Notes: a model not told the origin generated them from the sequence alone. Shown: positions 418-42,735, counted from the stretch's first letter. The stretch: DNA of 64,000 nucleotides from a virus (IMGVR_UViG_3300035670_000178:3036-67035), one strand, 5' to 3'. Numbers and translations are program-made.

Positions 418-592
418 TAGACCCCCCTCCCCTTCCCGCGCTCGCCTACCGGCACGCGGTTTCCGGTCTTGCGGCCCCGCCGGTTCGCCCGGTTTGCGCC
501 CGCCATGCGGTTTTCTCGGGCGATCAGCCACGTAACCCGCTCCACGTAGCGCACGACGGCGCACAGGGCCGTGGAAGCCCACTCCAGCGCCA

Positions 593-21162: not shown

Positions 21163-21625
21163 TCTTCAATACACCGAACAGACGTTCAAAGATGAAGTGC
21201 AAAAATTATTCAGAAATGCGGCCATTGAGTTTGTAGAGACGGGCATAAAAAATTTCCCAGCTCTTACAGGCCAAGCCAAAGCAGCAGTAATTAATGTTGC
21301 CGGTACACTAGGCTTACGAGTAGACTTCGATCCGATGTCTGAGCCTTACTCTGAATACATGCACTTAAGGCCAGCACTGATTGCTACAGGTAACGATATC
21401 CTACGTGGTTACAAAATGGGATCTTCAAAGATCCGTGATTACAAGTACACTGTGGCTTGGGAAATTAAGTTAAGCATAACTGCTGCTTCAAATGAGTTCG
21501 ACTACTTTACTTACTGGGATAATTCCCGTTGGCATTCGATGGAAGCTGCTATAGCTTCCGCCGAAGCATATGTCAGCCGCCACATGAGCGGTTTGTTGAA
21601 AGCGAGGCTTAAGAAAAATGGCTGA
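21116..21625 (+). CDS. putative neck/tail completion protein (HK97 gp10-like)
   Basis: PALTGQAKA resembles the P.DTG.L motif. Confidence 0.5.
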   Translation: MRKATIRTKVTVRKFDLQYTEQTFKDEVQKLFRNAAIEFVETGIKNFPALTGQAKAAVINVAGTLGLRVDFDPMSEPYSEYMHLRPALIATGNDILRGYKMGSSKIRDYKYTVAWEIKLSITAASNEFDYFTYWDNSRWHSMEAAIASAEAYVSRHMSGLLKARLKKNG

Positions 21626-24600
21626 TGGATTTGATTATTCTATTTCTATTAAAGGCGGCCAGGAAGCTCTCACTTTCTTCAATACGTTGAATAACGTATT
21701 AGACGACACTTCGGCGACCGCCAGAACAAACGCTGATCGTTTAAATGCGATCGCTAGACGTGCGGAAGAACTGGCTGCACGCTACAATGACGGTGCAGAG
21801 GCAGCGGCTTTATTTTTTAAAGAAGCCGCAGATGGATCTAGCACTTTCATCGAAGCCAATCTTAAAATGACCAAGGCTCAAAAAGCCTTAACGAGGCGTA
21901 CGGCTCAAGGTCTCGACGTTGCTGAAGCGATACGGCGTACCCTCGATCAGCTTACAAAAGAATACGAGCAGCAAAACACCATACTAGTTGAAGCTGCAAA
22001 AGCTGGTGAAGCCGTAAATGCTTCTCAGAAAAAAGTAGCAAAGTCTACAGGTGAAGTCTCTGAGGCTCTCGAAAAAGTACCTCTCAACATTTATGCTCAG
22101 ATGGCTGCTGAAGCTAAGGAAGCTCAAGAAAACATTGAAGCATACCATAAAGCAAATGCTGAATTTATGGATGACTTCGAGCGTAGACAAGCCGCTGCTC
22201 AGCTTCATACAGACGACGCTGGTGCTATTCGTCAAGTCATAGAGATCAACGAAGAACACGAGCGTACGCGCCAAATAATGCTTAAGTCTTACTTGGAGCA
22301 AAAAGATCAGCTAGAAGCTATACGGAAGCAAGAAGAAAAAGATGAAAAAGAACGGCTAAATGCAATTAAACGTGAAGAAAAAGCTCGTCAGAAAATGTAC
22401 GAGAATATTTTCACGTCTAGAGAATCTTTGCAACAAGAAAAAGATATCGATGAGTACGGTAGCATTGATCTTGCTAAGCAAGCACGTATGTATCAAGATC
22501 TTTTTGGATCAGCGGCTTCAGTAAAACAAGAAAGAAAAGCAGAGACAAAGCTGATCGAAGAAGAAATGGCAGCTTTGAAAGCCAAAGAAGACTTGGCTGA
22601 CCGTATCACTGCGGATTCTTGGGCTAGATACGTAGAAGAAGAAAAAGCTACAGAGGCTTTTGTGGAAGCCAGTATCAAGTCCTATAATAAGATGCATGCT
22701 GCTTTCATGAAGAATGTCGCCGAAGAAGAAGCAGCAAACGAGAAGAAGTTTCAAGAAGAACTTGCTTTGGCTAAGAAGTTTTTGAAATTTCAAGATGATG
22801 TCGCTAATGGTGCAAAATCTAGGCAAAGTCTTGGAAGTACTTCAGCGGCTGATCTTGTTGATGTTTCCCGCGGAGAAACGATCGTTAACCGTGAAGACGA
22901 CGGTTCGGAACGTTACCGTCGAATGTCTGAAGCTATAGCAGACTACCGAAATCAGCTTACTCTAGCTCAAGCTATGAAGACTCGATTCATCGGGACTGCA
23001 AAAGACGCTAATGAAGTAATTAAAGATTTCACTCTTTCCTGGCAGACCATGGGTCGAATCATGGTTGCTCAGGCATTCAATGAAGTCTTTTTTGCGATGC
23101 AGAACGGCATTCGTGGTGCCGTCAGCGAAGCCACTGAACTTTACAAAGTCGTAGCTGAAATTCAGACCATCGTCGATCCGGCTATGAGGACTCTTGGCGA
23201 CTACTACGCTTCGTTGGAAGCAATTATTCAAGCATCCAACCAGCTTAACTTTGCCCCAGATGACGTAGGTCTTGCTTTTTATGAAACTCTGTCCAATCAG
23301 ATTGGCGATAGCGTTGGAGAAATCCAAAATTTCATAAAAGAGTCGGCCAACCTTGCGAAGGTGACAAGATCAACTCTTGCAGATTCGTCTGACGCCATTT
23401 CGTCGGTGATGAACGCTTTCAATCTCAGTTTGTCTGACACTAACAAGATTGCATCTGAACTGTTTTCAGTTGTAGACTTGGGTCGTGTTAAGCTCGAAGA
23501 GATTGCAAATCACATCGGTAACGTTGCTGTACCTGCTGCTCAGCTAGGTCTCACGATGGAAGATCTGTCAGCTTCGCTGGCCACGATCTCTATTGCGGGT
23601 ATCCCTGCTAGCGAAACTATGACTTTGCAACGTAACTTGATGTATAAGTTGATCGACCCCACTGAAAAAATGACAGAGCTGATAAAAAGTTGGGGTGTTG
23701 ACTCTGCGGATGCTGCTGTTCAAACTTTTGGTTTCTTAGGTATCCTTCAAAAGTTAGATGAAGCCGCCGCCAAAGGTAGTGAAGAGTTGGCCGGCATAGC
23801 TGGTACGACGCGAAGTTACCGTGGTATCCTGGGCCAAATTGGCACTAACCTTGAAGTTTACGAAAAGGCATTAGAGGCTACTAGGAAGGCGCAAGAAAAC
23901 TACAACGAAGTTGTCGCAAAGTATGTTGAAAATCCAGGGGAACAGTTCTCCAAGCTCCAACAGCAAATCTCAAACGAAATGCTGCAAATGGGTCTTCGGA
24001 TCGTAGAACTTGTTAACTATTGGGATAACTTGTTTGGAAAGACTGAAGACGGCAATAGAGCTTTGGCTGTGGCTATAGGCTATATGACAAAGCTCACTAT
24101 GACGGTTACGGCTGGTGTTGTTGCTTTTCTTGTACTAGAAACAGCCATCGGCGCAGTCACACGTGCTCTTCTCGCTTTGAGCGTAGCGGAAAAGACAGTT
24201 ACGACAATCTCAGGTATTGGTCTAGCTATTTCAGCTTTGATCGGCACAGTGACGTTGGCAACAGCTGCCTATGCTACTTTCTCGGATAGCGCCACGAAAA
24301 GTCTTTCCAGAATTAAAACTGCTGCCGCCGAAGCCAACAAAGATGTGGCAAAAAGTTTTAAAGAAGGAATCATCGGGGCTACAGATCAGTTGGTCGGTGG
24401 TCAAATGACTACGATCAATGACAATTTGAAAGATATGGCTGCTTACCTTCAAAAGGTAAATGAAGCTGCGAAAAGCCAAGAAGCGAAAAAAGCGTTTGAA
24501 GATCTAGAGGCTTCTTTGAATCTATTCATCGATGCTTTGGGCGGTGATGAAGCCTCTCAGAAAATCACCCATCTATTCAAGTCTGCAAGTGAACTTCAGG

Positions 24601-27170
24601 ACATCTACGGAGAGTCCGTTTGGTACACTAATGACGCTTTGAAAGAAGGAGCTGATCTTCACGAAAAGAATGCAAATGAAATGGAGCGTGAGCTTGATCT
24701 TCTTAGACAGCAAAGAGACATGGTTCTTGATCTAGCTGCTGCTAATAGATTGGCTTTGGCTCAGAGCGTAACTGAAAGAAATATTTCGGCCATCGCAGAT
24801 CCAAAAGCCAGAGGCGTAGCACAGTTTAGGGCTGCTCAAGATGCCGCCTATCAAGCAGCCAACGTCGCCGACCCAGAAGAATCGCGTAAGCTCTTTGAAA
24901 TTGCTAGGAAATTCCTAGCAGATTCAGAACGCAGTGCCTACGAATCTGGAGCTTTCGGAAATCTTCAAGCCCACATTTCTTTCTTCAATCGACAAGAATC
25001 TGAGCTTTATGCTTTGCAAGAGCGTAGGTTGCAAGCAGAATACAATGCAATCGACGCTCAAAGTGTCAGTCTTCAAAAACAGCAACAAGAGCATAAAGAA
25101 AGTCTTGACTGGTACAACAAAGAATCAAAGCTACGCGAAGAAAGATTGCAACAGTACGATCTTGAGCTTAAGTATCTCCAAGAGTATGTCAGACTGCGCG
25201 ATCAAACTCTTAACAATAAAGAGCTTGGTGTCGACGAGCAAGTCCAAAGACTTAAAACTCTCAGAGATCAAGCTGAGATGGGCTTGAATGACATCAACGC
25301 TGGCGATCAAACCCGTGCAGCGTTTGCCCGTGAGTTCAATAAGACAGACCAGGAACTTCTAGGTTCAGCCGTATCTGCCGCCCAGACTCAAACTGCTATG
25401 GGTGCTAAAGATATTAAAGAAAAACAAAATGCACTTGATAGGGTTACCGATGATTTTGGGACGTCATTAACAAACGCTGCCGCAAAAACAGAAGAAGCCA
25501 TAAGAATCATTGCTGAGTCGGCCAAAGAACTTTATCGCTACGAAGGTCCGGCAAACGAGTACAGAAAACCGTCTGAAGTTTCTGAAATAGATACAATATT
25601 GTCTGAGTTTATTGCACTCAGAGATAGAGCTCAAACTGACAAATCTTTCACACCTCAAGATTACGAAGCATCGCTAGGTGCTCTGCAAACAAGGCTGGAA
25701 GATTTTATTAACCGAACTGGAACCGGATCGGACGATGCTAATTCTGCTTTGGCACTTGCTAAAGCAAATCTATCTCAGTTAGGGATTTTGAAAAACAGCA
25801 TTGACAATCTCACGCAAGAAATTGAAAAGCAGACAAAAGCTCTAATTGAGTATAGTAATCGTTTCGTCGGCCCGGACGTTGACTATAGTCAAGGTGTCGG
25901 TTCTTCTGAAGCAGAAGAAATGTATCTCGCTGAAGAAAGTTCAACTGAAAAAAAGTTTTGGGAAAGAACAGAAGAACAGTGGAATAAATTCTTCGATCTG
26001 GCGCTAAATACTATAAGCACAAAAGCTGCCAAATATTGGGGAAGGGTTCCTAAAGCCGGCGGTCTTGCAAACTACCAAGCTCATGCTATGAGTAGTTTCA
26101 CTCAAGAAAACTTTGACGATCCGGCCAATATGCAGAAAAAGATAAATAATCTAGTAGCTTCTGCTGAAATGGCCAATCCGTTAGCGTATAATAACAATAC
26201 TCAAATGGGCGCTAACTTGAAATCCTTTTTGCAAGAAGATATGACAAACAAACAGCAAACTGGAAATCAACCTTTTGAAAACTTGCCCAATCTAAATGAA
26301 ACTTATCACAGATTTCAAGATCTTGGTCGCATAGCTGTAGAAGCGATGGCTGATGGCGCTACGATAGCTATGGAGCAGGCACCTGCACCGGCTCCAGAGC
26401 AGGAAGCCCTGCTGTCGCAAGAACAAGCGCAAGCTAAGCAGAAGCAAACTATTCTAGATCAGGAAATGGCAAATGCTCAGGCTCAAGCTCAGCGTACCAA
26501 TCTCGAACCCTACATGTCTTACACAGATCCGCAAGGTAAGATAAACGGACAACCTGCTGTTGACGCTCTGGGGCCTGATCTTAAAGGTCCTCTAATTAAC
26601 GGCCAACCTATGACAGATTTCTTGCCTGAAAGACACAATCAAGTATCTTCTGGCGGCTTTATAGATGGCGTCCCTGCTGGATACATGACAAACGAAATCC
26701 AGAATGGAGTTAGTTGGGGAGCACAACAGTCGATCCCGCAAGCTATGGAACAAGGATCTATGTCTGTTCGTCAGGCTATTGTTGACGGTATGGCTCAAGC
26801 CTTCCGCGAAAATCAGATGAATCAAGGTATGATGAACTCTGAAGATCGTTATTACGATTATAGCCCTCGCAGATTTGCAAAAGGCGGACCTGTTGGCACA
26901 GACACGATCCCCGCTTGGCTTAGCCCTGGTGAGTATGTAGTGAATGCAAAAGCCTCTAAAGAAAACTTTAGTTTGCTTCAGGCAATCAACTACGGTGGCG
27001 GAATGAAACGCTACTCACAAGGCGGCCCCGTGACGAGCAGCCAATCTTTCAGCAACACTTTCCACATTACATCTGCTAATCCGAATATGCAAGCATCGAA
27101 TATCGCGACTGCACTGCGTAGGCAGATCGCACAAGGTAAGGCAACACTCTCAAAGAGAAGGCCCTATTGA
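21618..27170 (+). CDS. tape measure protein
   Basis: 1850 aa, helical, TP901-type core, central hydrophobic segments, C-terminal FAKGG..GTDTIPAWLSPGEYVVNA. Confidence 0.93.
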   Translation: MADGFDYSISIKGGQEALTFFNTLNNVLDDTSATARTNADRLNAIARRAEELAARYNDGAEAAALFFKEAADGSSTFIEANLKMTKAQKALTRRTAQGLDVAEAIRRTLDQLTKEYEQQNTILVEAAKAGEAVNASQKKVAKSTGEVSEALEKVPLNIYAQMAAEAKEAQENIEAYHKANAEFMDDFERRQAAAQLHTDDAGAIRQVIEINEEHERTRQIMLKSYLEQKDQLEAIRKQEEKDEKERLNAIKREEKARQKMYENIFTSRESLQQEKDIDEYGSIDLAKQARMYQDLFGSAASVKQERKAETKLIEEEMAALKAKEDLADRITADSWARYVEEEKATEAFVEASIKSYNKMHAAFMKNVAEEEAANEKKFQEELALAKKFLKFQDDVANGAKSRQSLGSTSAADLVDVSRGETIVNREDDGSERYRRMSEAIADYRNQLTLAQAMKTRFIGTAKDANEVIKDFTLSWQTMGRIMVAQAFNEVFFAMQNGIRGAVSEATELYKVVAEIQTIVDPAMRTLGDYYASLEAIIQASNQLNFAPDDVGLAFYETLSNQIGDSVGEIQNFIKESANLAKVTRSTLADSSDAISSVMNAFNLSLSDTNKIASELFSVVDLGRVKLEEIANHIGNVAVPAAQLGLTMEDLSASLATISIAGIPASETMTLQRNLMYKLIDPTEKMTELIKSWGVDSADAAVQTFGFLGILQKLDEAAAKGSEELAGIAGTTRSYRGILGQIGTNLEVYEKALEATRKAQENYNEVVAKYVENPGEQFSKLQQQISNEMLQMGLRIVELVNYWDNLFGKTEDGNRALAVAIGYMTKLTMTVTAGVVAFLVLETAIGAVTRALLALSVAEKTVTTISGIGLAISALIGTVTLATAAYATFSDSATKSLSRIKTAAAEANKDVAKSFKEGIIGATDQLVGGQMTTINDNLKDMAAYLQKVNEAAKSQEAKKAFEDLEASLNLFIDALGGDEASQKITHLFKSASELQDIYGESVWYTNDALKEGADLHEKNANEMERELDLLRQQRDMVLDLAAANRLALAQSVTERNISAIADPKARGVAQFRAAQDAAYQAANVADPEESRKLFEIARKFLADSERSAYESGAFGNLQAHISFFNRQESELYALQERRLQAEYNAIDAQSVSLQKQQQEHKESLDWYNKESKLREERLQQYDLELKYLQEYVRLRDQTLNNKELGVDEQVQRLKTLRDQAEMGLNDINAGDQTRAAFAREFNKTDQELLGSAVSAAQTQTAMGAKDIKEKQNALDRVTDDFGTSLTNAAAKTEEAIRIIAESAKELYRYEGPANEYRKPSEVSEIDTILSEFIALRDRAQTDKSFTPQDYEASLGALQTRLEDFINRTGTGSDDANSALALAKANLSQLGILKNSIDNLTQEIEKQTKALIEYSNRFVGPDVDYSQGVGSSEAEEMYLAEESSTEKKFWERTEEQWNKFFDLALNTISTKAAKYWGRVPKAGGLANYQAHAMSSFTQENFDDPANMQKKINNLVASAEMANPLAYNNNTQMGANLKSFLQEDMTNKQQTGNQPFENLPNLNETYHRFQDLGRIAVEAMADGATIAMEQAPAPAPEQEALLSQEQAQAKQKQTILDQEMANAQAQAQRTNLEPYMSYTDPQGKINGQPAVDALGPDLKGPLINGQPMTDFLPERHNQVSSGGFIDGVPAGYMTNEIQNGVSWGAQQSIPQAMEQGSMSVRQAIVDGMAQAFRENQMNQGMMNSEDRYYDYSPRRFAKGGPVGTDTIPAWLSPGEYVVNAKASKENFSLLQAINYGGGMKRYSQGGPVTSSQSFSNTFHITSANPNMQASNIATALRRQIAQGKATLSKRRPY

Positions 27171-27171
27171 T

Positions 27172-27864
27172 ATGTTACAGTACAATTTGAGTCTTGTAGC
27201 GCACGCGCAACTTGCTGCCACCTTGTCAGACTCTGGTACTACGCTTCAAGTAATGCCTGGACAGGGGGCTGCTTTCACGCAGCCCCCTGCCATAGGGGTT
27301 CTTGCTCGTAGCCGGGCCTACAGGGATCTAGCAGTCGCAGAGCACGTCAAGCTAGTTTCACGATCCACAGACATCATCACAATCGAAAGAGGAATTATCG
27401 GCACTCCACAAGAGTGGCCAACCGGTACTCTTCTTCTAGGGTACTGGTCCCCTGCTCTGCTAGATCAGGTCTTTAATAACCTCGATGCGCTTGAGTACAC
27501 GCTCAATCTCACAGTCGGGGGAGGAAAGCAGAATGTTGTATTCAAACGTACTGGTAAAGATTTCGCGGCGTCTGCCGGATCTGGACTTAGTGTCAATGTC
27601 ACTTCTGGCTCTGCTTTTGCAAATTACAAACTAGTCACTACTTTGACTACAACGAATCTTGCTTTCACAGCGCCAGCCAGCGCAACCCGCATCGACTTGA
27701 TTCAAGCCAATGCTCTCAAACAAACGGTAGAAGTTAAGCTAGGAACCGAAGGAGGTTCCGCTCCTTCTGCGGATACTGACTGTATCGGACTCTGGCAAGT
27801 AACTACTACGGTAGGCCAGGCAACAAGAATAAGTGGAGACCTAGCCGATGTCCGCGTCTACTAA
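27172..27864 (+). CDS. tail/baseplate protein
   Basis: ITIERG.GT and TAPASATRIDLI motifs typical of tail fibre attachment proteins. Confidence 0.65.
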   Translation: MLQYNLSLVAHAQLAATLSDSGTTLQVMPGQGAAFTQPPAIGVLARSRAYRDLAVAEHVKLVSRSTDIITIERGIIGTPQEWPTGTLLLGYWSPALLDQVFNNLDALEYTLNLTVGGGKQNVVFKRTGKDFAASAGSGLSVNVTSGSAFANYKLVTTLTTTNLAFTAPASATRIDLIQANALKQTVEVKLGTEGGSAPSADTDCIGLWQVTTTVGQATRISGDLADVRVY

Positions 27865-30664
27865 GAAGTTCCTTCTTGCTACGCTAATGCTCATACCGAT
27901 CTTTGCGATCGGCCAAACGTACATCCCTTCCGGTGGACTGGAAATACTCAACAATCTCGGGCAGACTGTAATCAGTTTGTTCGACACTGGCGACGCTGAG
28001 TTTGATGGCACGATCACCGCAACAGCTTTCGTCGGTGACGGTTCGGCCCTCACCGGGGTGGGTATCACACCGGAGTTCATCGAAGCCCTCGATCCAGCTT
28101 CTCCAGCCGCATTGGATCTTCTTGTAGGTGTCGATGCGACAGATGGCGCACTTAAACAGTATGACATTGGCGACATCCTAGGCGCTGGCGGCGGCATCAC
28201 AGACGGCGCGACTCTTGTTACTGGGCTTACTTTCCCTAACACCGGTCTTCACTTACTTGATACAAACGCAAGCCACGATCTAATCTTGTCGCCCGGCTCA
28301 GACCTCACAGCTGACCGCACTCTGACGATCATGACTGCCGATCTCAATCGTACGCTCACACTCTCCGGTGACTCTACGATCAGTGGAGCTAACTCCGGCG
28401 ACATCACGCTTAGTGGAACTCCTGACTACCTGAGCTTGACAAATCAAGTCCTCACGCTGAACGGCATCGATATGAATGACATCGATGCAACAGGCACTCC
28501 AAGCGCCAGCACTTATCTTCGCGGCGACGGATCGTGGGCTGCCGTTTCGGGCAGCGGAATAACTGATGGCGACACTCTAACTACTGGGCTTACTTTCCCC
28601 AACACTGGACTCAAAGCTCTTGACACAGATGCGAGTCACGCACTCACTCTTCGATATAACGAAAATGCATCTGCTGCTAGGACGCTCAATCTAGTCCTTG
28701 GAAATACTGATCGAACTCTCACTCTGAGTGCAGACGCAACTGTCGGTGGCACAAACAGCGGTGACGTCACGCTAAGTGGTACTCCTGATTACTTGAGCCT
28801 CACTAATCAGGTACTTACGCTTAATACCGTTGACATGAACGATATCGATGCAACGGGTACGCCGAGTGCAAGTACCTACCTTCGTGGCGATGGCTCTTGG
28901 ACCGCGTTGGTTGGCGGAGATCCGACTTACGGAAGCGCTGGCGGAGCAACTGACAATGCTGTATACGTAGACGCAGACAATCAGTTAGGCTTGGGTATTC
29001 TAGCTCCTCTGTCAAGCATCCACATCTACGACGAAACGCTGCCTCCGACGATCACTTACCAATACTTTAATGAAAGCGTAGGCGACGTCACTCAATATGC
29101 CGGTACTGGCACCGGCATGGCAGACGGAGCCGGCGGAACTTGGAACAATCCTAGTAACATTTCTGCGAACGACGGTAATTTTACTCAGACGATCAATCTA
29201 TTTACAGACGATTCGGAGAGTAATTCTTTTAAAGCCACTAACTTTTCGTTTGCCATACCGGCTGAAGCCGTTATTGACGGCGTCGAAGTAGACGTAGAAG
29301 TTTGGTCTAGCGAAGCAGACACCGAAGATTACGTCACTAAGTTAATTATCGGAGGCGTAGTTCAAGAAGCTAACAAAGCCACAGGCGCTCTTCTAGGAAC
29401 AACCCCTGCTGTTAAAACTTACGGCGGCCCGGCAGACACTTGGTCAGAGAGTTTGACACCTGCGATTATCAACTCTTCTGACTTCGGTGTTTCTTGGCAG
29501 GGTTGGTATGGCGTCGCGGCCAACATCTCGATCGACTACATCACGATCACTATTTACTATACTACAACTGCTGGCGATCATACTTGGGCCACAGGACTCA
29601 GCCTTGCTGACGGATCGTTCAACTTCCGTGAGAATGCAATCGATCATTTCAGCATCGCAAAGACTACCGGCAACGCAACGTTTCAAGGCAACGTGACTGC
29701 TGATGCGTTTATAGGTGACGGTTCCGGTTTGACTGGACTTCCTGCCCCTACTATCGCAGATGGTTCAATCAGCCGTGCCAAGCTGGCTGACATGGTCGCT
29801 GATCGAATTATGGGCCGTAATGGAACAACCGGCGCACCTGAAGATCTAACACCCGCTGAAGTACGCACCATGCTCAACGTAGCTGACGGCGCGACAGCTA
29901 ACGCTGGTACAGTGACTAGCGTCGGAATCATAGGCACCGACGGCATTGACGTTGATTCTGGCTCGCCCGTCACGTCGAGTGGATCGATCACTTTGGGTCT
30001 GAATAGCAATACTATTTGGACCAACTTAGTATCCACTGCCTCCACCGTGACCCCCGGCACAGAAGATTCTTTGCTTATTGCCGATGAAAGTGCTTTGGGC
30101 GCTGTAGCTGAAGTCAGTCTAACTAACTTTGTTTTGACTGGCACCGGTAACGATAACTACCTCTACAAAAAGAACGGAACGTCAGGACAGTTTGATCGTA
30201 CCGACATAATCGTTGACGACTCAAACAATGTCACCGGACTTGGCACGATCAACGGTCACACTCTTCCGACAGGAACTTACACTCTAGCAACTACTTCCAA
30301 AGCTGAAGTGCTTACAAACAAAGAAGTAGTCAAAAGAGAATACGTAACAAACGGAAGCTCTGCCACAGTAGATATTGATTCTTACGATCAAATGACCATT
30401 ACAGGAGTATCTAGCAGCCCGATTACTATCGGTGCTCCTACAGGCACCAAGTACAACGGTCAAGAGTTGATTATTTGGATCAATCAAAACGCAACACCGG
30501 CAGTGTTTAACTTCAACGCTGTCTTTGTATCTTCGGCGGAGTGGGGTCTCAGCGGAGCTATCCCCGCGCCGTCGACCACGAATGATGCTTGGGATTACTA
30601 CAAGTTCGTCTGGAACGAGTATGAACTTCAATGGCACCTTTTGGCGCATAGCGCAGGGAACTGA
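27848..30664 (+). CDS. tail-fibre-like protein with N-terminal signal peptide
   Basis: FVGDGSALTG and TYLRGDGSW fibre motifs, internal duplication, Thr/Gly-rich; KK plus hydrophobic N-terminus. Confidence 0.75.
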   Translation: MSASTKKFLLATLMLIPIFAIGQTYIPSGGLEILNNLGQTVISLFDTGDAEFDGTITATAFVGDGSALTGVGITPEFIEALDPASPAALDLLVGVDATDGALKQYDIGDILGAGGGITDGATLVTGLTFPNTGLHLLDTNASHDLILSPGSDLTADRTLTIMTADLNRTLTLSGDSTISGANSGDITLSGTPDYLSLTNQVLTLNGIDMNDIDATGTPSASTYLRGDGSWAAVSGSGITDGDTLTTGLTFPNTGLKALDTDASHALTLRYNENASAARTLNLVLGNTDRTLTLSADATVGGTNSGDVTLSGTPDYLSLTNQVLTLNTVDMNDIDATGTPSASTYLRGDGSWTALVGGDPTYGSAGGATDNAVYVDADNQLGLGILAPLSSIHIYDETLPPTITYQYFNESVGDVTQYAGTGTGMADGAGGTWNNPSNISANDGNFTQTINLFTDDSESNSFKATNFSFAIPAEAVIDGVEVDVEVWSSEADTEDYVTKLIIGGVVQEANKATGALLGTTPAVKTYGGPADTWSESLTPAIINSSDFGVSWQGWYGVAANISIDYITITIYYTTTAGDHTWATGLSLADGSFNFRENAIDHFSIAKTTGNATFQGNVTADAFIGDGSGLTGLPAPTIADGSISRAKLADMVADRIMGRNGTTGAPEDLTPAEVRTMLNVADGATANAGTVTSVGIIGTDGIDVDSGSPVTSSGSITLGLNSNTIWTNLVSTASTVTPGTEDSLLIADESALGAVAEVSLTNFVLTGTGNDNYLYKKNGTSGQFDRTDIIVDDSNNVTGLGTINGHTLPTGTYTLATTSKAEVLTNKEVVKREYVTNGSSATVDIDSYDQMTITGVSSSPITIGAPTGTKYNGQELIIWINQNATPAVFNFNAVFVSSAEWGLSGAIPAPSTTNDAWDYYKFVWNEYELQWHLLAHSAGN

Positions 30665-30666
30665 TC

Positions 30667-31206
30667 ATGAAAAAGTACATTCTAATCTTTGCACTTGCTC
30701 TGCCTTGTTTCGCGACGACTCTCGAAGAGAGAGTCGCCGCTCTGGCCGAAGCTCCCGGCGTAGCCGTGGCCGAGGTTCAAACCGACGCTCAGGGCCGCCC
30801 CGCGGTCAAGCCCATGCCTGGGTTTCCCAAGTACGGTACCGTCGAAGTTCGATATCTTTACGTGGCTGACGGGGTAGTCGAAGATAACTCTGTTACTTTG
30901 ATTATCACCCCTGACGAGCAAGCTCTGTGGCATCGAAGGCTGCCCGCTCCTTTAGAGCAAGTGAGGCAGACTACCACGATCCAAACTATCGGCACGGACG
31001 AAGAGATTCGTTTGGCAATTAACACGTCTCAAAAAGTTACTTTGCTCGACAAGATCAGTGTCGAGCGCAGTGACTTGAGTGCTGATGTTCACGGCTATAT
31101 CGAAGTAGCCGGCTTGCTAACGCCGGTGCATTACTATGTAGCTCGTAACATCAAAACTCAAGAATGGATCGTGAAGCCTTACGATACTACGGCGGTGACA
31201 AAATGA
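30667..31206 (+). CDS. hypothetical protein with signal peptide
   Basis: MKKYILIFALALPCFA N-terminus. Confidence 0.7.
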   Translation: MKKYILIFALALPCFATTLEERVAALAEAPGVAVAEVQTDAQGRPAVKPMPGFPKYGTVEVRYLYVADGVVEDNSVTLIITPDEQALWHRRLPAPLEQVRQTTTIQTIGTDEEIRLAINTSQKVTLLDKISVERSDLSADVHGYIEVAGLLTPVHYYVARNIKTQEWIVKPYDTTAVTK

Positions 31207-32330
31207 TCAAGCGTCTCCTGTTTGTAGCCTTGCTACTCGCTACGACTAGAGTCGAGGCTGCTTGGCCGTCAACAGGCAGCTATACGGCTTGGTCAAAATG
31301 TTTCAAAATCACAACGCAAGCATCAAAAATTGACGGCGCCCTAGATTGGTACTGGCTGGATCTCGATGATATGCCCATCGAGTTCTGGAACACAGTCAAG
31401 ACTGACGGTGGGGATCTTCGATTCGTAGAAGATGATCTTGAGACAGCGATCAATCACCGTCTGATTTTCATTGACACAGTCACGGACACAGGGCTAGTAG
31501 CTGTAGCCCAGCCTCACGGGGGCAGCGGCGCAACAGTAGACATAGACAGTTACGTCTTCGTCGGAAACGCCGCTGCCGCCGATCCAGGAATCTCACCGTT
31601 TCCTGGAACCGTTGAAGCTCTTTGGATGTTGCAAGAAGCACCCACTTCTACGACAGCCATCACAGACTACAGCGGTAACTCTCGTGGCTCAACTAACATT
31701 GCTGGCGTGATGACTAGCGGTGACTTGATTGCTGCCGGGCCTCACTCTAGTCTAAAGTGCATAGACTTTGATAGCAACGATCGAATAACTTTTCCTGCTA
31801 CAATCTTCAACGACATCGAATCAAGTTTGACCTTCACTTTTTGGTCTTGGGCCAAAGTAGAAGACGAAGATACCGACCGTGGATTGTTCGGTTCAGCGGG
31901 CAACCAGTTCGCGACAAGACATAAATTAACGGGTGCCGGTGAAGCTCTAATCCGTAGCAGCACGAACGCTTCTAACTTTACTGTGAACACTTCTCCTGCA
32001 TTTGAAGAATGGTTCTTAGATGTTTGGGTAATGGTCCATGTAGTTTGGGACGGATCGACGCTTAAGTTTTACCACAACGGCGTCGAAAAAGGATCTGCAT
32101 CTGCTCTGTCTTTAAGATCCGTAGACTTGAATTACTTTCTTGGCTCCGACAACACTACTTATTGGAATGGAAAGATCGGAGAAACTGGGATAGCGTCTAA
32201 TGCGCTGACAGCCAATCAAATTGCTACTATGCATACAAACTCAACAGACTCAACTTTTTGGGTTATTGCAGAACACACGGGCGGTGGTGGCGGAATGACA
32301 GTGCAACAGAGAACTAGAGGATTCTTCTAA
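31203..32330 (+). CDS. DUF2341-like plus LamG/ConA lectin domain protein with signal peptide
   Basis: DGGDLRF; W.MVHVVWDGSTLKFYHNG and WNGKIGE...ALTANQI; start MIKRLLFVALLLATTRVEA. Confidence 0.8.
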   Translation: MIKRLLFVALLLATTRVEAAWPSTGSYTAWSKCFKITTQASKIDGALDWYWLDLDDMPIEFWNTVKTDGGDLRFVEDDLETAINHRLIFIDTVTDTGLVAVAQPHGGSGATVDIDSYVFVGNAAAADPGISPFPGTVEALWMLQEAPTSTTAITDYSGNSRGSTNIAGVMTSGDLIAAGPHSSLKCIDFDSNDRITFPATIFNDIESSLTFTFWSWAKVEDEDTDRGLFGSAGNQFATRHKLTGAGEALIRSSTNASNFTVNTSPAFEEWFLDVWVMVHVVWDGSTLKFYHNGVEKGSASALSLRSVDLNYFLGSDNTTYWNGKIGETGIASNALTANQIATMHTNSTDSTFWVIAEHTGGGGGMTVQQRTRGFF

Positions 32331-32854
32331 TGTCGTTAGCGGAACTTAGCCTTAGATGCGCCAAAGAGATCTACGGCTCGATTGCACCCAACACCAACTA
32401 TATTGATCGAACACATCGGCTGCTTCTTGGAACAGCCGCTACCGAGTCTCACTTCAAGTATCGAAGGCAAGGCGGTTTCAGTTTCGATTCTGACAAAGGT
32501 GCTTGGGGTCTTTGGCAAACAGAAAAAGACAGCGTCGAAGATAATCTTCGACTGCTGTCTAGGCGAGAAGACATACGATCAAGAGTCGCAAACTTCTTGG
32601 TTGGGCACGAAAATATCGACGGGCTTCTTGCAATGAATTCGTCTGCCGTTCTTCGTCTAATCTATTCTTGGGATGCGTTAGCCGTCGTGATGTGCAGGCT
32701 TCATTACTTCCACAAACGACCACCGATCCCTGAGTCTCTCGAAGCCCAGGCTGAATACTACAAGATATACTACAACAGTATGCTTGGCAAAGGTTCACCT
32801 GAGAAGTACATTCGTGACTGGAACACATTTGTCAAAGGAAAACTCTATGGTTAG
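32330..32854 (+). CDS. lysozyme-like / transglycosylase-like protein
   Basis: LLLGTAATES (candidate catalytic Glu), GLWQ, CRLHY, YYKIYYNS..GKG. Confidence 0.7.
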   Translation: MSLAELSLRCAKEIYGSIAPNTNYIDRTHRLLLGTAATESHFKYRRQGGFSFDSDKGAWGLWQTEKDSVEDNLRLLSRREDIRSRVANFLVGHENIDGLLAMNSSAVLRLIYSWDALAVVMCRLHYFHKRPPIPESLEAQAEYYKIYYNSMLGKGSPEKYIRDWNTFVKGKLYG

Positions 32855-33062
32855 TTCACGCACCACACAAAACGCTGTACTCGGGGCCGGGTTAGCCGGC
32901 ACTGTACTGTTGTCTCTGTTCACGTTGCTTCGCAACCGTTGGCCTGATGTGATGTGGCCGCAAGAACACGACAACGCGATCATCGTATATCTGACGGCTG
33001 TTCTCGGACCTCTGTTGGCCCGAAAGATAGCTTTCATTCGTAACCCGGAGAAAAAGAAATGA
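32847..33062 (+). CDS. putative holin
   Basis: 71 aa, two hydrophobic segments, basic C-terminus, next to a muralytic gene. Confidence 0.6.
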   Translation: MVSSRTTQNAVLGAGLAGTVLLSLFTLLRNRWPDVMWPQEHDNAIIVYLTAVLGPLLARKIAFIRNPEKKK

Positions 33063-33130
33063 TTGAGTTCATCGAATACATCATCTGGCTGCTCAACACG
33101 ATCCTCGAAGCTCTCGGTCTTTTCGTATGA
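33059..33130 (+). CDS. 23-aa hydrophobic peptide (not in the ORF track)
   Basis: MIEFIEYIIWLLNTILEALGLFV; ATGA overlaps with both neighbours. Confidence 0.55.
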   Translation: MIEFIEYIIWLLNTILEALGLFV

Positions 33131-33489
33131 AAGCCATCGCCGGTTTCCTACTCGCAGCTTCGTTAAGCGGCTGCGTCGGCCTAGCGCCGGCAATGGCAGG
33201 GAAGACTCACTACAACGTAGAGTTCACGGATACTACTCTCGATCAGAACACTCAGTACAAAATGAACATCAAAGCACCGGCCGGCGTCGATCTAGCTTCC
33301 GTGACTGGAATGACTTACGATTGGCAGCCGGACGGCTCTGGTAACATTTCGGTATCGAATGACTCTACCGTGAACACTCAAGCTCAAGCCGAAGCTCTAG
33401 TCAAGATCAACGAGCAGCAGACTATGATCCTCGGCGAAACCGTAAAGGCTCTAACGAGCGCTTTGGAAATGTTGAAGAATGAAGATTAA
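33127..33489 (+). CDS. lipoprotein, possible spanin component
   Basis: MK, hydrophobic stretch, LSGC lipobox. Confidence 0.7.
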   Translation: MKAIAGFLLAASLSGCVGLAPAMAGKTHYNVEFTDTTLDQNTQYKMNIKAPAGVDLASVTGMTYDWQPDGSGNISVSNDSTVNTQAQAEALVKINEQQTMILGETVKALTSALEMLKNED

Positions 33490-33910
33490 ATATTGGAACT
33501 TTAGGAACCCAACCCAAGAACAGATAATCAAAGATCTGATAGAAGAGTTGGGTGAATTGATTCCCAGATATGTACTTAAGTTGGACGTCTACAATTGGGA
33601 CGACGACGGTAACTGCTACGCATCGGTCGAGCACGACATCAAGTACATGCTTGTCAAATTGAACATCTACAATCTTTTCTTTGCCGGCACACGGGAAGAA
33701 ATGCGTGAAAGGCTGATACATGAACTAACCCATTTGCACACCAATAGTCTGTTCACCTTTATTGAACTCGACATATTGGATTATGTGCGTGAAAGTAATG
33801 CGCCTCTAGCAGAGCATTTTCGGAGGCAACTCAATTTGCTGGAGGAGGGTCTTGTAGTACAAGTGTCACACTTTATAGCGGAGTCTACTCGTGGAAGTAA
33901 ACGGAACTGA
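33479..33910 (+). CDS. HEXXH metallopeptidase-like protein
   Basis: LIHELTHL with downstream EE. Confidence 0.6.
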   Translation: MKIKYWNFRNPTQEQIIKDLIEELGELIPRYVLKLDVYNWDDDGNCYASVEHDIKYMLVKLNIYNLFFAGTREEMRERLIHELTHLHTNSLFTFIELDILDYVRESNAPLAEHFRRQLNLLEEGLVVQVSHFIAESTRGSKRN

Positions 33911-34232
33911 CGTTGGACTGGGGTTTGGGGCTTTCATAACATCAGTACTAGCTTACTTAGGATTCAGACCAAAAAAGGACGATCCGATGGCTGAGCTAAA
34001 GAAAGAAATAGAGGAGATTAAGGGGAGGCAAAATCGATTTGAAGAAGCTCTTCACTCGCTGACTGAACTGACTAAACGCGACATCAAAGAAATTAATGAA
34101 GATGTGAAAGAGATGAAAGAGGGCGTAAAAGAAATGTCCCATGCGATACAAAATATCGCAACAAGTGTCACTAGGTTAAATACCCTTTATGAGGTAGCCG
34201 CCAATGCGACAAAATCTTCAAGACACTCGTAA
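33891..34232 (+). CDS. membrane-anchored coiled-coil protein (lysis accessory)
   Basis: N-terminal hydrophobic segment followed by heptads. Confidence 0.6.
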   Translation: MEVNGTDVGLGFGAFITSVLAYLGFRPKKDDPMAELKKEIEEIKGRQNRFEEALHSLTELTKRDIKEINEDVKEMKEGVKEMSHAIQNIATSVTRLNTLYEVAANATKSSRHS

Positions 34233-37009: not shown

Positions 37010-39151
37010 ATGCGAACCATTCCCCCTAACATGCTTGCTGCATTCCAAGAGCAGCAAGGACTCGACTTGAAGTTCATAGTCGAAGTAATCTGGGACGAGG
37101 GCGAAGATCCGATCATGTATTCAACTTGCGAATACGACGGGTTGGAAGTCTACCCTTACGTCAAAGAGTTCGGCACTTTTCAGTCCGTCTCTCACGTAGA
37201 GGGGCTCGGCGCCGTGAGTTCAATGGAAGTAGTGTTCTATGATCAATTCGGCCACTTCAAAGAGAAGTTGAACAACGTTGATCTTGTCGAGCGAGCCACC
37301 GCCACGGTCTATTTGACGTTGGACGGCTCGGAACTGTTCGACTTGTTCGAGGGCAAGATTAGCGATAGCGCTTCGTGGGCTAACAACGAATTCAAAATCG
37401 AAGTGCTCAGTGAAAACATCGATAAAGAAGTCGGCTATCAGCCCAGTATCGACGACGTCGACGAAACCGAACCAGACTATGAGTTCCTCGAACGGCACCT
37501 CAACACATCGTCGGCTTGGCCCGCCGTCTTCGGCACGGTTAAGAACTACGAGATTCCCATTATCTGGACTCAACGTGAAGCCGTAACCGAAGAAGACATC
37601 AGTTACGAACCGGGTTCCGACCCGCCGTACTATGAACTCAAGATTGACCAGCATGATGATTTCACCCTTGACACAGAATACTTCGTGAACATCGTCGGCA
37701 AGATCAATTCTGTATTCTCAATCCTCGGCTACGGTGTATTCACGGACAATGAAGACGGCGATCCTGTCTTTCGACTCACGAAAGAAGGAGTACACTCTAA
37801 CTGGTACAAGAACATCGCCTTCACGATCCTCGATAACAACGGAATCGTAGGCGACACCGATCAACCCACTACACGAATAACGATCGAACCCGGCCCAGTA
37901 ACAATCGACGAAGTCGAATTACACACGCTCGGCCCCGACGGTGAAGAGACGACTTCCGTCTGGCTTCAGTTCATGAAGTTAGAGATCCGTTACTCTTTCA
38001 TGGCGTTATCCGGCCCCGGAGCTTCCAGCAAGATAACACTTTCTAAGTATGTCAATTGCTCTAGGCAGCAAGGCAATGTGATTACTTTAAATGAAAACTT
38101 GTCTTTAGTTGGCGGAGCATTTGATATATACATTCGCACCGTGAGTAAAGCCAACGACATCATCTATCAGATCCCTTCGGGTTCTAAGATATACATCATG
38201 GGTGATCGAATCGGCTACGCCGTAGACACAAAGACAGATACAGTAATCGATCGAATCGCAATCAAGCACGGCGACGAACTTGTAACAATCGATCCGGCTG
38301 CTTACGAAGTCAGCACGGCTGCTCTCTGGATCGGCACCCACCCTCCCGTGAAGTACATTCATATGCTCGGTGAAGTCTACATGCGCTACATCGAACATTA
38401 TGCTTTGGAAGGGAACAGCAACGAAGGCTTGCTTGCTTCGGCACACAATACTTACAATAGCGAAGCCGAGGCCATAGCACAACTGACCGACATTCCTACG
38501 ATCGATCTGGTGCCGAATGAAACGAACTTCGTATATCTTTCCGTAGAAGACGCGCAGGATGTCGTACCGGAGATCGCTTGGCAAGCGAACAAAGCTGTCC
38601 GGTACACCCGTGAAAACAACGATGACGTGCTCGAACTGATCGACTTGACAGACACAACGACACCTGCTGTGTATTCGTTCACAGAAGATAACATTCTGTT
38701 CGGTAGCGTAGAGTACGGGTTCACGTCGAAAGACAATCTCTACACCGTGTTCAAAGCATCGTTTCAGACCAACAATCTATTGAAGGATCTCGAAACGATT
38801 CGCATGAAAAAGAACAATGACATCTACGGTGAGGAAGTCCTCGAAACAGACTATTACATCTTCAAGAGCAAGACTGTAGCGAAACAAAAACTTTCCTGGT
38901 GGAAGGACAAACTAAGCCGGTTCTATTACACAATCAAACTGACCGGGTTCATGGATGCCTTCGGGCTGGAAGTTTGGGATAGGGTTCATGTGAGCCTCGA
39001 TCCCTCTACGTTCTACGATCCGGCTGACGGCACTCCTTACACCCACACTCACGACGCAGATCCACAGCCGATCATCGGCTATGGCAGAATCAAAGAGATA
39101 GCACCAGACTTGACAACTGGTCTGGTCGAATTCACAATCGAGGTAGAGTAA
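37010..39151 (+). CDS. tail tip / baseplate hub protein
   Basis: LFEGKI, PAVFGTV, IYGE, LEVWDRV motifs; 713 aa. Confidence 0.65.
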   Translation: MRTIPPNMLAAFQEQQGLDLKFIVEVIWDEGEDPIMYSTCEYDGLEVYPYVKEFGTFQSVSHVEGLGAVSSMEVVFYDQFGHFKEKLNNVDLVERATATVYLTLDGSELFDLFEGKISDSASWANNEFKIEVLSENIDKEVGYQPSIDDVDETEPDYEFLERHLNTSSAWPAVFGTVKNYEIPIIWTQREAVTEEDISYEPGSDPPYYELKIDQHDDFTLDTEYFVNIVGKINSVFSILGYGVFTDNEDGDPVFRLTKEGVHSNWYKNIAFTILDNNGIVGDTDQPTTRITIEPGPVTIDEVELHTLGPDGEETTSVWLQFMKLEIRYSFMALSGPGASSKITLSKYVNCSRQQGNVITLNENLSLVGGAFDIYIRTVSKANDIIYQIPSGSKIYIMGDRIGYAVDTKTDTVIDRIAIKHGDELVTIDPAAYEVSTAALWIGTHPPVKYIHMLGEVYMRYIEHYALEGNSNEGLLASAHNTYNSEAEAIAQLTDIPTIDLVPNETNFVYLSVEDAQDVVPEIAWQANKAVRYTRENNDDVLELIDLTDTTTPAVYSFTEDNILFGSVEYGFTSKDNLYTVFKASFQTNNLLKDLETIRMKKNNDIYGEEVLETDYYIFKSKTVAKQKLSWWKDKLSRFYYTIKLTGFMDAFGLEVWDRVHVSLDPSTFYDPADGTPYTHTHDADPQPIIGYGRIKEIAPDLTTGLVEFTIEVE

Positions 39152-39663
39152 TGGCATCCCGTGACATCAACAAATTAAAGCCCGGCTGTAAAGAAAAAGC
39201 GTACGCCCTCCTTGAACGCGCACCATTTGAGGTGCTCATTTATTGCACAGGACGATCCGCTGTAGAGCAAGCGAAGCTGTACCGGCAAAGCCGCACCAAG
39301 GCCGTGATCGAGCACAAGATCAGCGTCTACGAAAAGTACGGTCACTATGAGCTTGCGAAGATCCTTCGTGATGTTGGCCCACAACATGGGCCACACGTCA
39401 CTAAGGCCGGCCCTGGTGAATCCATCCATCAGTACTGGTTGGCGTTCGACGCTGTACCAATCATCAACGGCAAACTTGCTTGGGACACCAAGAAGTACGC
39501 CGACCAATGGTCGGTCATCGGAAAGATCGCCACTGAGCTTGGGTTGAACTGGGGCGGCAATTGGCCGAAGTGGGCGGACTTCCCGCACTTCCAAGACGCG
39601 CCATCAGGCAATCCTCTTAAGCTAGGCTGGAAAGACTGCATCTTTACGGAAGACGATCTATGA
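39151..39663 (+). CDS. endolysin, M15 family peptidase (L-Ala-D-Glu type)
   Basis: RS..EQAKLY, SIHQYWLAFD, WGGNW, DFPHFQ. Confidence 0.9.
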   Translation: MASRDINKLKPGCKEKAYALLERAPFEVLIYCTGRSAVEQAKLYRQSRTKAVIEHKISVYEKYGHYELAKILRDVGPQHGPHVTKAGPGESIHQYWLAFDAVPIINGKLAWDTKKYADQWSVIGKIATELGLNWGGNWPKWADFPHFQDAPSGNPLKLGWKDCIFTEDDL

Positions 39664-40503: not shown

Positions 40504-41055
40504 CATTCTCTTATACGCCTTCGACATAGCCATCGCTTGCTGCAAAGCCGTATACTTGAGATCAAGCGGCGCTTCACAGTTGTTCAAGATATACCGTAAG
40601 GTAGTCTTCGAGAACGGGATAACTTTATCTTCCCCTTCGTGAAGATCATTCATGTACAACGAAACAGCTTTCAAGTCTCTAGCCTTATCGCAGAACGCAA
40701 GTTTGAACCCAGACTCAGAGACAAAGCTAGTCAAGAATTCTTTAGTCACAGGCCAGTCATACACTAGTGGTATGATCTGGCCTTTTTTTATGTGCAAATC
40801 AAACCACTCATCAAACAAATCCCATACTTCCGTGTGGCGCTTAGCGAAGATTCGGTCTTGCAGCTTCAACTTCTTTTCGTGCTCTGGGCTGACTCGAATA
40901 TACTTCTCAAAGATTTGCTTGAAGATAGGGTTGTAGTTCAAATCCAACGGCAATATGCAGATGTGATATATTTCATCCGTCTTTGGATCTTTACCAGTGG
41001 TACGAATACCAATGGAACACATCACATTACCGTTGAGTGTTTTACCCATACGCAT
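40486..41055 (-). CDS. DEDD exonuclease-like protein with degenerate catalytic motif
   Basis: SIGIRTTGKDP..DEI aligns with DxETTGLDP. Confidence 0.65.
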   Translation of the reverse strand: MRMGKTLNGNVMCSIGIRTTGKDPKTDEIYHICILPLDLNYNPIFKQIFEKYIRVSPEHEKKLKLQDRIFAKRHTEVWDLFDEWFDLHIKKGQIIPLVYDWPVTKEFLTSFVSESGFKLAFCDKARDLKAVSLYMNDLHEGEDKVIPFSKTTLRYILNNCEAPLDLKYTALQQAMAMSKAYKRMLRFPF

Positions 41056-41813
41056 TCGTACCGTCCTTTCTCTCTAGACCCTATGTTTGCTTGGGCTTGC
41101 CAACATTCTCGGTAATCCCAATACTTCATTTCATCATAGTAGTCACAAGGCTCGCCACTGAGTATCACCTTCCCATCAATATCACCGATCAATTGAAGTA
41201 ACCTTCTGTGCTCACGTTCGCCAAAGTCTTCTTCGTCGTACATCCCATTGTATGCGCTAACGTAAGGTGGATCGATATAAAAGATTGTACTTTCTGAGTC
41301 ATACTTTTCTATGACTTCAAAACAATCTTTATTCAACACCTTAACATCTAGCAACCTCTCGTGAATCTTTCTGAAGAATGGAAGACGATCATATATTTTC
41401 TTCGCGTCGGAAGAATTCTCCATTCTTCTCCCGAAGTGCTGACCTTTCTTAGAAAATGATGCTATCGTCAAGTACCAGAAAGCAACAGCAGCGTCCAGCC
41501 CTTCAAGTTCACTGTTCAGATAATCTTGGAACTGCTCTCTAGAGTATGGGTGCATTTCCATCTTGAACAGCAACTCTTCAAGTGTGTCCGGATCTTGAAG
41601 AACCTTAAAGAAGTTGACTACATTCTTGTTGAGATCGTTAAGGACATCGCAGAAATGAGGTTCCGTGTTTAACAGGACTACTCCGCTTCCAGCAAAAGGC
41701 TCCACATAGTAGTCGGGTTCATAATCAATGTGTTTCAAGATCTTGTCTAGAAACTTTTCTTTATTACCAACCCAACCGAATGGACTCTTTATGCGTTCTT
41801 GACCCATACGCAT
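41022..41813 (-). CDS. Dam-family DNA adenine methyltransferase
   Basis: YVEPFAGSG, NDLN, FYIDPPY. Confidence 0.9.
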   Translation of the reverse strand: MRMGQERIKSPFGWVGNKEKFLDKILKHIDYEPDYYVEPFAGSGVVLLNTEPHFCDVLNDLNKNVVNFFKVLQDPDTLEELLFKMEMHPYSREQFQDYLNSELEGLDAAVAFWYLTIASFSKKGQHFGRRMENSSDAKKIYDRLPFFRKIHERLLDVKVLNKDCFEVIEKYDSESTIFYIDPPYVSAYNGMYDEEDFGEREHRRLLQLIGDIDGKVILSGEPCDYYDEMKYWDYRECWQAQANIGSREKGRYECVWVKHSTVM

Positions 41814-42565: not shown

Positions 42566-42735
42566 TTCGAGTACTCCAACAACAGAGCCAAGCCGAGTAG
42601 AATCAAGAACATCCAAACAACCAAAAATGTAGGGAAGCACTTGGTGTGCTTGAAATAATCGCAAACTCGTCGGGAAGCGTCACTAAGGAGAAGGCCCAAG
42701 AAAAACAACCCGCAAGCAAATATAAAAGAACTCAT
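42562..42735 (-). CDS. 57-aa two-TM membrane protein (not in the ORF track)
   Basis: MSSFIFACGLFFLGLLL...FLVVWMFLILLGLALLLEYSK; ATGA overlaps on both sides. Confidence 0.6.
   Translation of the reverse strand: MSSFIFACGLFFLGLLLSDASRRVCDYFKHTKCFPTFLVVWMFLILLGLALLLEYSK

Follow-up and report, generated by a model that had tools for sequence, protein, structure and literature searches.

In the textbook account, the assembly of a tailed phage takes place wholly in the cytoplasm. Classical tail-fibre modules, such as Stf/Tfa of lambda and gp37/gp38 of T4, are encoded late, after the tape-measure and tail-tip genes, and combine a repeat-rich fibre bearing an exchangeable tip with small downstream accessory genes. 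Signal peptides are a feature of the MAT fibres of Bdellovibrio, phage-tail-fibre-like trimeric adhesins, all 21 of which are stated to possess a conserved domain right after the signal peptide (PMC10769870). The absence of a signal peptide has been used as an argument for the phage origin of a fibre-like gene (PMC6199706), and a survey of open full text aimed at this question yielded no description of a Sec signal peptide on a tailed-phage fibre. The present analysis concerns three consecutive late genes (27848..32330, + strand) of an uncultured phage, laid out in the manner of the classical modules and located in a 64-kb stretch (hereafter, the window) of the 67,035-bp contig IMGVR_UViG_3300035670_000178, which is kept as a virus record. 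The trio would constitute a distal tail-fibre module in which a fibre is joined by a lectin of the LamG type and a small accessory protein. The entire module carries conserved, cleavable-looking export signals, and sister phages possess the same mature proteins without them.

The first gene, open reading frame (ORF) A (27848..30664, + strand), encodes a tail-fibre protein of 938 amino acids (aa) with two copies of a repeat of about 120 aa, and sits in a tail operon behind the gene of the tape-measure protein and that of a 230-aa protein. ORF B (30667..31206, + strand) encodes a 179-aa accessory protein of two alpha+beta halves belonging to no known family (model predicted local distance difference test score, pLDDT, 79), and ORF C (31203..32330, + strand) a 375-aa, two-jelly-roll lectin-like protein with a LamG domain. 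The initial annotation had described all three as tail-fibre-like, a label that fits ORF A only, ORF B being a small alpha/beta protein and ORF C a lectin. Its description of basic, hydrophobic, and small-residue regions at the three N-termini was found in the sequence as quoted, and so was the coupling of each start to the previous stop: the ATG of ORF A at 27848, preceded by GGAG 9 nt upstream, overlaps the end of the upstream tail gene (stop at 27864) by 17 nt, the ATG of ORF B at 30667 lies 2 nt behind the ORF A stop, and ORF C begins in an ATGA overlap with the stop of ORF B.

Signal peptides were called by an in-house, crude three-part rule, by N-terminal hydrophobicity, and by comparison with homologues. 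That predicted for ORF A comprises 22 aa (MSASTKKFLLATLMLIPIFAIG; 27848..27913, + strand), in which two Lys are followed by 15 uncharged residues and then A-I-G, and would leave a mature protein starting with QTYIPSGG. For ORF B, the three-part pattern and the homologue comparison point to a signal of 16 aa (MKKYILIFALALPCFA; 30667..30714, + strand) and a mature start of TTLEERV; for ORF C, the homologue comparison points to 19 aa (MIKRLLFVALLLATTRVEA; 31203..31259, + strand) and AWPSTGSY. All three possess a positive n-region (K6 and K7 in ORF A, K2 and K3 in ORF B, K3 and R4 in ORF C) with no acidic residue before the hydrophobic (h-) region, which in turn runs to 15, 13, and 11 uncharged residues, respectively (about 7-15 being expected), with best nine-residue Kyte-Doolittle means of 2.89, 2.83, and 3.29. 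Small residues occupy −3 and −1 in ORF C (V-E-A) and ORF B (C-F-A). When the 107 greedily called ORFs of the 67-kb genome were ranked by hydrophobicity, the trio supplied three of the top four N-termini; the crude three-part test was passed by 6/107 ORFs, with the trio as the three top scorers and the other three being marginal or tiny. In the structure models of ORF B and ORF C, the N-terminal segments have a pLDDT below 50 and are detached from the folds.

Other kinds of N-terminus were considered and rejected. A twin-arginine translocation (Tat) signal does not apply, there being no RR in the n-region of ORF A, B, or C. The lipobox consensus is [LVI][ASTVI][GAS]C; the signals of ORF A and ORF C contain no Cys, and the L-P-C of ORF B, with Pro at −1, does not fit it. 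A second, signal-less isoform made from an internal start was likewise discarded, as no in-frame ATG, GTG, or TTG is present at the cleavage sites.

ORF C was compared with 30 close, full-length homologues (47-67% identity), 21 of which possess an N-terminal peptide with a basic start and a hydrophobic core in an otherwise freely variable sequence. Ala stands at −1 and A, V, S, or T at −3 in 21/21 of these signal-bearing forms, and this site directly precedes the most conserved stretch of the family, A-W-P-x-x-G-S-Y. The remaining 9/30 start with M-A-W-P-S, that is, at the predicted +1 residue; given that the initiator Met is normally removed before Ala, these signal-less homologues would share the same mature N-terminus. 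In contig L001, the start of the signal-less ORF C overlaps the stop of the preceding gene at the DNA level, and hence no upstream signal is hidden there. The longest reading of the window's ORF C starts at 31164, but the true start is almost certainly 31203 (MIKRLLF...), judging by the ATGA overlap and the 21 homologues with the same type of N-terminus. Homologues lacking such N-termini, which the initial annotation had counted against its proposal, were indeed encountered (9/30 for ORF C, 7/35 for ORF B, and the whole trios of L001, L016, and L017), yet the manner in which they lack them, each beginning precisely where cleavage is predicted, favours the existence of a discrete signal peptide and does not refute it. 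More distant phage DUF2341/LamG tail-module proteins (L003-L015, 26-33% identity) carry no signal.

The LamG half of the earlier DUF2341/LamG assignment of ORF C stood: PF13385 matches residues 190-341 (E 5.7e-14; 53 bits against a cut-off of 27.6), and the model (pLDDT 85, predicted template modelling score, pTM, 0.85) retrieved lectin-like jelly rolls in PDB with Foldseek E values down to 7e-11 and phage proteins in BFVD down to 2e-17, the named rows among the latter being LamG or concanavalin A-like. The DUF2341 half did not, in that PF10102 gave no match to the window protein at E<=0.01. DUF2341 is on record for the close homologues P0008, P0012, and P0029 and for the distant cellular protein P0032, and the N-terminal jelly roll of ORF C may be a divergent member of that family.

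A profile of ORF B, searched against 1.84 billion representatives, gave 37 matches, two of which are fragments. Among the 35 full-length representatives, 28 are signal-bearing, their signals mostly ending in A-x-A before x-T-L-E, and 7 are not; the latter include proteins starting with M-(T/K)-I-K-E-Q-L, which aligns to TLEER, the predicted mature start. The family is almost free of cysteine in both signal states. In the relatives P0034-P0036, P0157, P0158, P0161, and P0165, a conserved Cys lies within the signal in a lipobox-like L/V-I-A-C context, and some ORF B relatives may thus be lipoproteins. The protein itself matched no PHROG or NCBIfam family, its best Pfam score was 18.6 bits against a cut-off of 28, and its model matched no PDB fold at E<=0.001, with a metalloproteinase chain of the fungalysin type, the C-terminal domain of YpeB, and members of the cystatin family among the weak top rows; scores in the ESM Atlas reached at most 0.76 and serve as leads only. 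A Tfa/gp38-like chaperone was considered as its identity; there was no Pfam match above cut-off and none in PHROG, NCBIfam, or PDB folds, and only the position after the fibre fits. Complex prediction in which ORF B was the partner of mature ORF C and of the tip of ORF A (score 0.13; mark 0.32) speaks neither for nor against binding.

Concerning ORF A, the alternative start at Met14 lacks a Shine-Dalgarno (SD) sequence. Public gene calls start ORF A at Met14, which leaves 925 aa, and reduce ORF B to 146 aa, with the consequence that the signals are hidden. No curated family matched ORF A (0 Pfam, 0 PHROG, 0 NCBIfam). The fibre profile A3 matches it at E 2e-106 and no other ORF of the window, and finds the fibre genes of L001 and L016-L020 in matching positions. 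Homology to the L001 and L017 fibres was seen in the tip region of ORF A. An N-terminal MSA(R/D)xKK followed by an h-region is kept in the relatives P0038-41, 43, 50, 82, and 155. The predicted c-region is less canonical than those of ORF B and ORF C: the −3/−1 residues read A-I-G in the window, G-I-A/S in P0038-41, and F-L-G, F-I-G, or L-L-G in P0043, 50, 82, and 155. Among the fibre homologues in the matches listed, 30/119 passed the crude signal test. Many signal-bearing fibres among P0054-P0105, from sequences with a guanine-plus-cytosine (G+C) content near 0.6, have Gln after the predicted site (A-Y-A or A-A-A, then Q-Q); Gln at +1 is presumably typical of Bacteroidota signal peptidase I substrates, which makes it a possible clue to the host.

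Across relatives, the extensions vary in sequence and keep the three-part pattern with an Ala-x-Ala site. The signal state is concordant between the genes on 10/10 contigs, of which seven are signal-bearing (the window, L020 for its fibre and ORF B, and Logan contigs of 78807, 63480, 40973, 4972, and 14425 bp) and three signal-less (L001, L016, and L017). L020 and the signal-less L001 form an instructive pair with equal G+C, their tape-measure, 156-aa, 240-aa, and 592-aa tail proteins being 45-60% identical (56% for the tape measure and 60% for the 592-aa protein); the fibre and the ORF B homologue of L020 are signal-bearing, and the alignment of the two fibres pairs residues 29-280 in L020 with residues 1-225 in L001. 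Similarly, the fibre tips of the signal-bearing P0054 and the signal-less L017 are identical at 106/125 residues. In a maximum-likelihood tree of mature ORF C cores, the signal state changed at least four times on well-supported branches, as exemplified by P0017 versus P0021, P0026 versus P0028, and P0008/9/12 nested among signal-bearing forms. Loss of cysteine is expected of a protein exported into the oxidising periplasm, and the ORF C cores contain a mean of 2.67 cysteines with a signal (n=21) versus 5.56 without (n=9), with fewer cysteines on the signal-bearing side in 3/3 sister contrasts. An explanation by host lineage, as gauged by G+C, was set aside, since the signal-bearing L019 and L020 (0.59) lie near the signal-less L001 (0.60).

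The fibre profile retrieved 80 loci in IMG/VR. Signal-bearing fibre-like proteins occur in L019, L020, L053/54/56, L062/63, and L091, spanning a G+C of 0.375-0.60, in a phage structural context that includes a terminase and portal (L053), a head protease (L063), and a tail protein (L020). On this comparison, signal-bearing fibre-like genes appear to be present in at least five unrelated uncultured phage lineages. Small proteins predicted to be exported often adjoin them. L063 (3649-9587) has five predicted exported proteins in a row, two lipoproteins and a 782-aa protein included, and in L091 (6750-11498) a signal-bearing fibre of 1210 aa precedes a signal-bearing protein of 104 aa, beyond which a lipoprotein of 83 aa lies two genes on.

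At the level of sequence and comparison, the predicted signals exist, are conserved as signals, abut the mature N-terminus, switch together, and accompany cysteine loss. They very probably drive export through the Sec pathway, with cleavage by signal peptidase I. The proposal of export in the initial annotation thus gains support from the homologue comparison, the Ala-x-Ala sites, and the drop in cysteines; the translocation, cleavage, periplasmic assembly, and late docking set out below are inferred. Each protein would begin as a precursor whose Sec-type signal peptide can be cleaved off and, late in infection, pass through SecYEG into the host periplasm, where signal peptidase I would cut after AIG in ORF A (the least certain of the three), CFA in ORF B, and VEA in ORF C, leaving mature N-termini equal to those that the signal-less sisters would acquire by simple removal of the initiator Met. 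The module would then fold, and probably assemble, in the periplasm, and would meet the fibre-less virions of the cytoplasm only once holin action and lysis mix the two compartments, whereupon it would dock on the tail tip. That the exported proteins mature in the periplasm and still become virion fibres by docking at lysis is the reading we prefer, at slightly less than even odds. Through frequent flips of the signal state, the upstream tail genes, the tip, and the mature proteins with their N-termini persist, which implies that function tolerates either compartment of origin, and such tolerance points to action after lysis has mixed the compartments. Docking on virions is favoured over other uses because the module lies in the fibre position and the genome has no other fibre of this family. 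Taken as a whole, the proposition that a broad and probably virulent clade of tailed phages builds Sec-exported, signal peptidase I-cut fibre modules in the periplasm, completes its virions at lysis, and flips the trait as a three-gene unit is put forward tentatively, as a possibility short of a probability.

Several considerations weigh against docking of an exported module at lysis. Export and cleavage are deduced by comparing sequences, a circumstance that equally favours the absence of export weighed further below. A virion fibre exported through Sec is not known to us from any tailed phage, and attachment put off until lysis seems inefficient. That the host has a diderm envelope is an assumption based only on the lipobox protein and the M15 endolysin of this genome. 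The weak c-region of ORF A (A-I-G, with F-L-G or L-L-G in relatives) might mean that the fibre stays anchored in the membrane. Regarding the concordance of 10/10 contigs, the five Logan contigs were paired only by equal 'longest_contig' values, and L001, L016, and L017 are closely related, so that the number of independent events behind the tally is smaller. Lineage and G+C partly confound the contrast in cysteines.

The strongest competitor accepts the signals as real and takes the module out of the virion: it would work within or upon the infected cell's envelope, or else as unbound protein once the cell has lysed. Attachment to the phage's own receptor, on dying cells and on what is left of them, could save progeny or block superinfection; the module could also make cells adhere to one another. 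The initial annotation had already named joining the virion at or after lysis and display on the infected cell as the two options. We regard this as rather unlikely, if deserving of serious attention. Phages do encode exported proteins beside receptor-binding genes (Llp of T5, Cor, and Lom of lambda), membrane and lipoprotein genes form a cluster immediately downstream of the trio, and runs of exported proteins surround signal-bearing fibre-like genes in L063 and L091. The fibre tip held in common with signal-less fibres is what a receptor mask would need, and frequent switching fits a post-lysis function of this kind as well, the compartment of origin then being irrelevant. A periplasmic fibre would, however, have to cross the outer membrane in order to reach a surface receptor, and the region showed no secretion system. 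Nor does the genome encode a second, signal-less fibre of the same family, so a virion deprived of the module would lack such fibres altogether, and the conservation of the mature N-termini and upstream tail genes across the two signal states is unexpected once virion docking has been lost. One variant, an adhesin of lysogenic conversion, is unlikely in view of the lack of an integrase or repressor among the 20 replication-module and early-region ORFs scanned, out of about 107 in the genome; with no integrase among those 20, the phage is probably virulent.

Docking of an exported, cleaved module has also to be set against the idea that the N-termini, at least that of the fibre, are uncleaved signal anchors tethering the proteins to the inner membrane with the folds facing the periplasm, where tails would dock at the tethered module or the module would join in the disruption of the envelope. 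The poor −3/−1 residues of the ORF A relatives (F-L-G, L-L-G), the invariant T-x-(I/V)-P-S-G-G directly after their hydrophobic stretch, and the lysis-like genes adjoining the trio in both the window and L001 would all suit a tether. It is nevertheless improbable: with 11-15 residues, the h-regions fall short of the length that a stable membrane span requires, the A-x-A sites of ORF B and ORF C are of the textbook kind, and signal-less relatives of all three proteins exist, so a tether is not needed for function.

Equally improbable, in our estimation, is that nothing is exported at all and that the N-termini are cytoplasmic docking or oligomerisation helices, or neutral extensions, of virions assembled in the usual way. 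General knowledge of cytoplasmic assembly in tailed phages speaks for it, and the target proteins of phage diversity-generating retroelements (DGR) are stated to be without the signal peptides of their bacterial counterparts (PMC6199706). Against it stand one and the same three-part pattern on three unrelated proteins, along with Ala at −1 in 21/21 ORF C homologues, extensions poorly conserved in sequence and conserved in character, their removal in relatives exactly at the +1 residue, the cysteine depletion accompanying them, and model segments of pLDDT below 50 detached from the folds.

The trio belongs to a late module that runs on the + strand from 12.6 to 40.3 kb and contains, besides the terminase (13068-14744), a portal (phrog_145), a scaffold (phrog_206), a P22-type coat protein (PF11651, phrog_283), and a tape-measure protein of 1850 aa (21618-27170; PF10145, phrog_28), all on the + strand. 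The 230-aa tail protein directly upstream of the fibre (27172..27864, + strand) has a weak match to the PHROG tail-fibre family phrog_8469 (E 9.6e-6) and is 28% identical to the 240-aa tail protein of L020. A foreign island was rejected as the origin of the trio, its G+C of 0.501 matching the 0.494 of the window.

Right behind the trio (32330-34232, + strand) lies a run of envelope-type genes. It opens with a 174-aa protein of unknown function (32330..32854, + strand; phrog_3108, E 5e-21), the start of which overlaps the last base of ORF C and for which neither a PDB sequence search nor NCBIfam returned anything usable; the NCBIfam scan covered ten proteins of the region, the trio among them, with the same outcome for all. 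Next come a small protein with two hydrophobic segments (32847..33062, + strand), holin-like by architecture only, as judged from its translation, and without a family match, and a predicted lipoprotein of 120 aa (33127..33489, + strand), which begins with MKAIAGFLLAASLSGC, has a lipobox-like LSGC, and passes the crude signal test. The run also holds a 143-aa protein with a HELTH (HExxH) motif and a membrane-anchored coiled-coil protein of 113 aa (33891..34232, + strand), whose translation has an N-terminal membrane segment followed by a coiled coil, the architecture of the protein after the trio in L001 (9078-9374). The sole recognisable endolysin, an M15 protein (39151-39663), lies 5 kb past these genes, after more tail-like genes.

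From 40.5 kb onwards, the minus strand (41022-62117) encodes a family A DNA polymerase, a DUF5906 protein, a ligase, an exonuclease, a deoxynucleoside monophosphate (dNMP) kinase, two D12 methyltransferases, a SNF2 helicase, and ParB-like proteins. The D12-class N6-adenine DNA methyltransferase genes adjoin each other (41022-42664, − strand). The first 2 kb of the window (1-2000) have a G+C of 0.61 versus about 0.49 elsewhere in it. A 64-aa early-region ORF (1882-2076, − strand) with the signal-like N-terminus MKRTIIALTVAGTICAGA is among the few other ORFs that passed the crude test.

The initial annotation had further read a MYFIFGY tag as a hint of envelope-linked assembly, a suggestion that was not upheld, as the tag is a seven-residue start of head genes with neither a basic region nor an h-region of signal length. 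MYFIFGY or MLYFVFGY opens four head-module genes on the + strand, at 16783, 17518, 18867, and 20008, which encode a scaffold-like protein, the major capsid protein, a 147-aa ORF, and a 166-aa ORF. Three of them share a nearly identical 21-nt opening (3 matches versus 0.01 expected by chance), and an AGGGA/AGGAA-like SD sequence precedes the aligned starts at 16783, 17518, and 18867.

By all these searches, the genome appears to be that of a tailed phage without a close cultured relative. Its terminase is at most about 24% identical to those of cultured phages (Vibrio phages), and neither blastn of 27000-33000 nor tblastn of ORF A matched any of 50,697 phage records; tblastn of ORF C found only two weak matches, in archaeal spindle viruses. 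ORF A alone and the major capsid protein alone found no relatives in IMG/VR, a metagenome scan yielded only two short loci, and the ORF C profile found no relative in 185,579 species genomes, hence neither prophage nor host.

If virion fibres are truly built in the periplasm, no Sec-dependent virion component would have been known in Caudoviricetes before them. Confirmation of export would mean that completion of the virion can be postponed to lysis or that the export of copies of the adsorption apparatus, to some other end, is routine among phages. Either option would change the annotation of signal-bearing fibre-like genes in viromes and their use in predicting hosts. The pairs of signal-bearing and signal-less sisters constitute a clean natural experiment, and the short N-termini lend themselves to tests in E. 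coli that do not require the phage in culture.

Among the closest known counterparts of the trio are the signal-less trios of L001, L016, and L017, on contigs from IMG/VR and JGI, which have the same three genes in the same order with ORF C 56-62% and ORF B 31-32% identical and with homologous tips; they differ in that their proteins start after the window's predicted cleavage site, their ORF C contains more cysteines, and their G+C is 0.60 versus 0.49. Compared with the classical modules of lambda and T4, whose fibres fold and attach in the cytoplasm, the trio has predicted Sec-type signals on all three proteins and its ORF B matches no chaperone family. The Bdellovibrio MAT fibres resemble the fibre of the trio in kind and in carrying signal peptides, but they are encoded by chromosomal genes of a predatory bacterium, outside any phage tail operon, and some possess S74 chaperone-protease domains, not found in the trio (PMC10769870). 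T5 Llp, Cor of phi80 and N15, and lambda Lom and Bor are likewise exported, encoded beside tail-fibre genes, and active on the host envelope, yet they are small lipoproteins or outer-membrane proteins unrelated to fibres, whereas the trio comprises a fibre and its partners and has no lipobox. Among late phage proteins that use Sec, secreted and signal-arrest-release (SAR) endolysins are not virion fibres; pIII and pVIII of filamentous phages are virion proteins matured by signal peptidase, but the assembly of filamentous phages takes place at the membrane, and they have no relationship to tailed phages. Last of all, PblA and PblB of the Streptococcus mitis phage SM1 are tail-fibre proteins that also act as cell-surface adhesins; unlike the trio, they lack signal peptides, and they reach the surface via holin- and lysin-dependent release.

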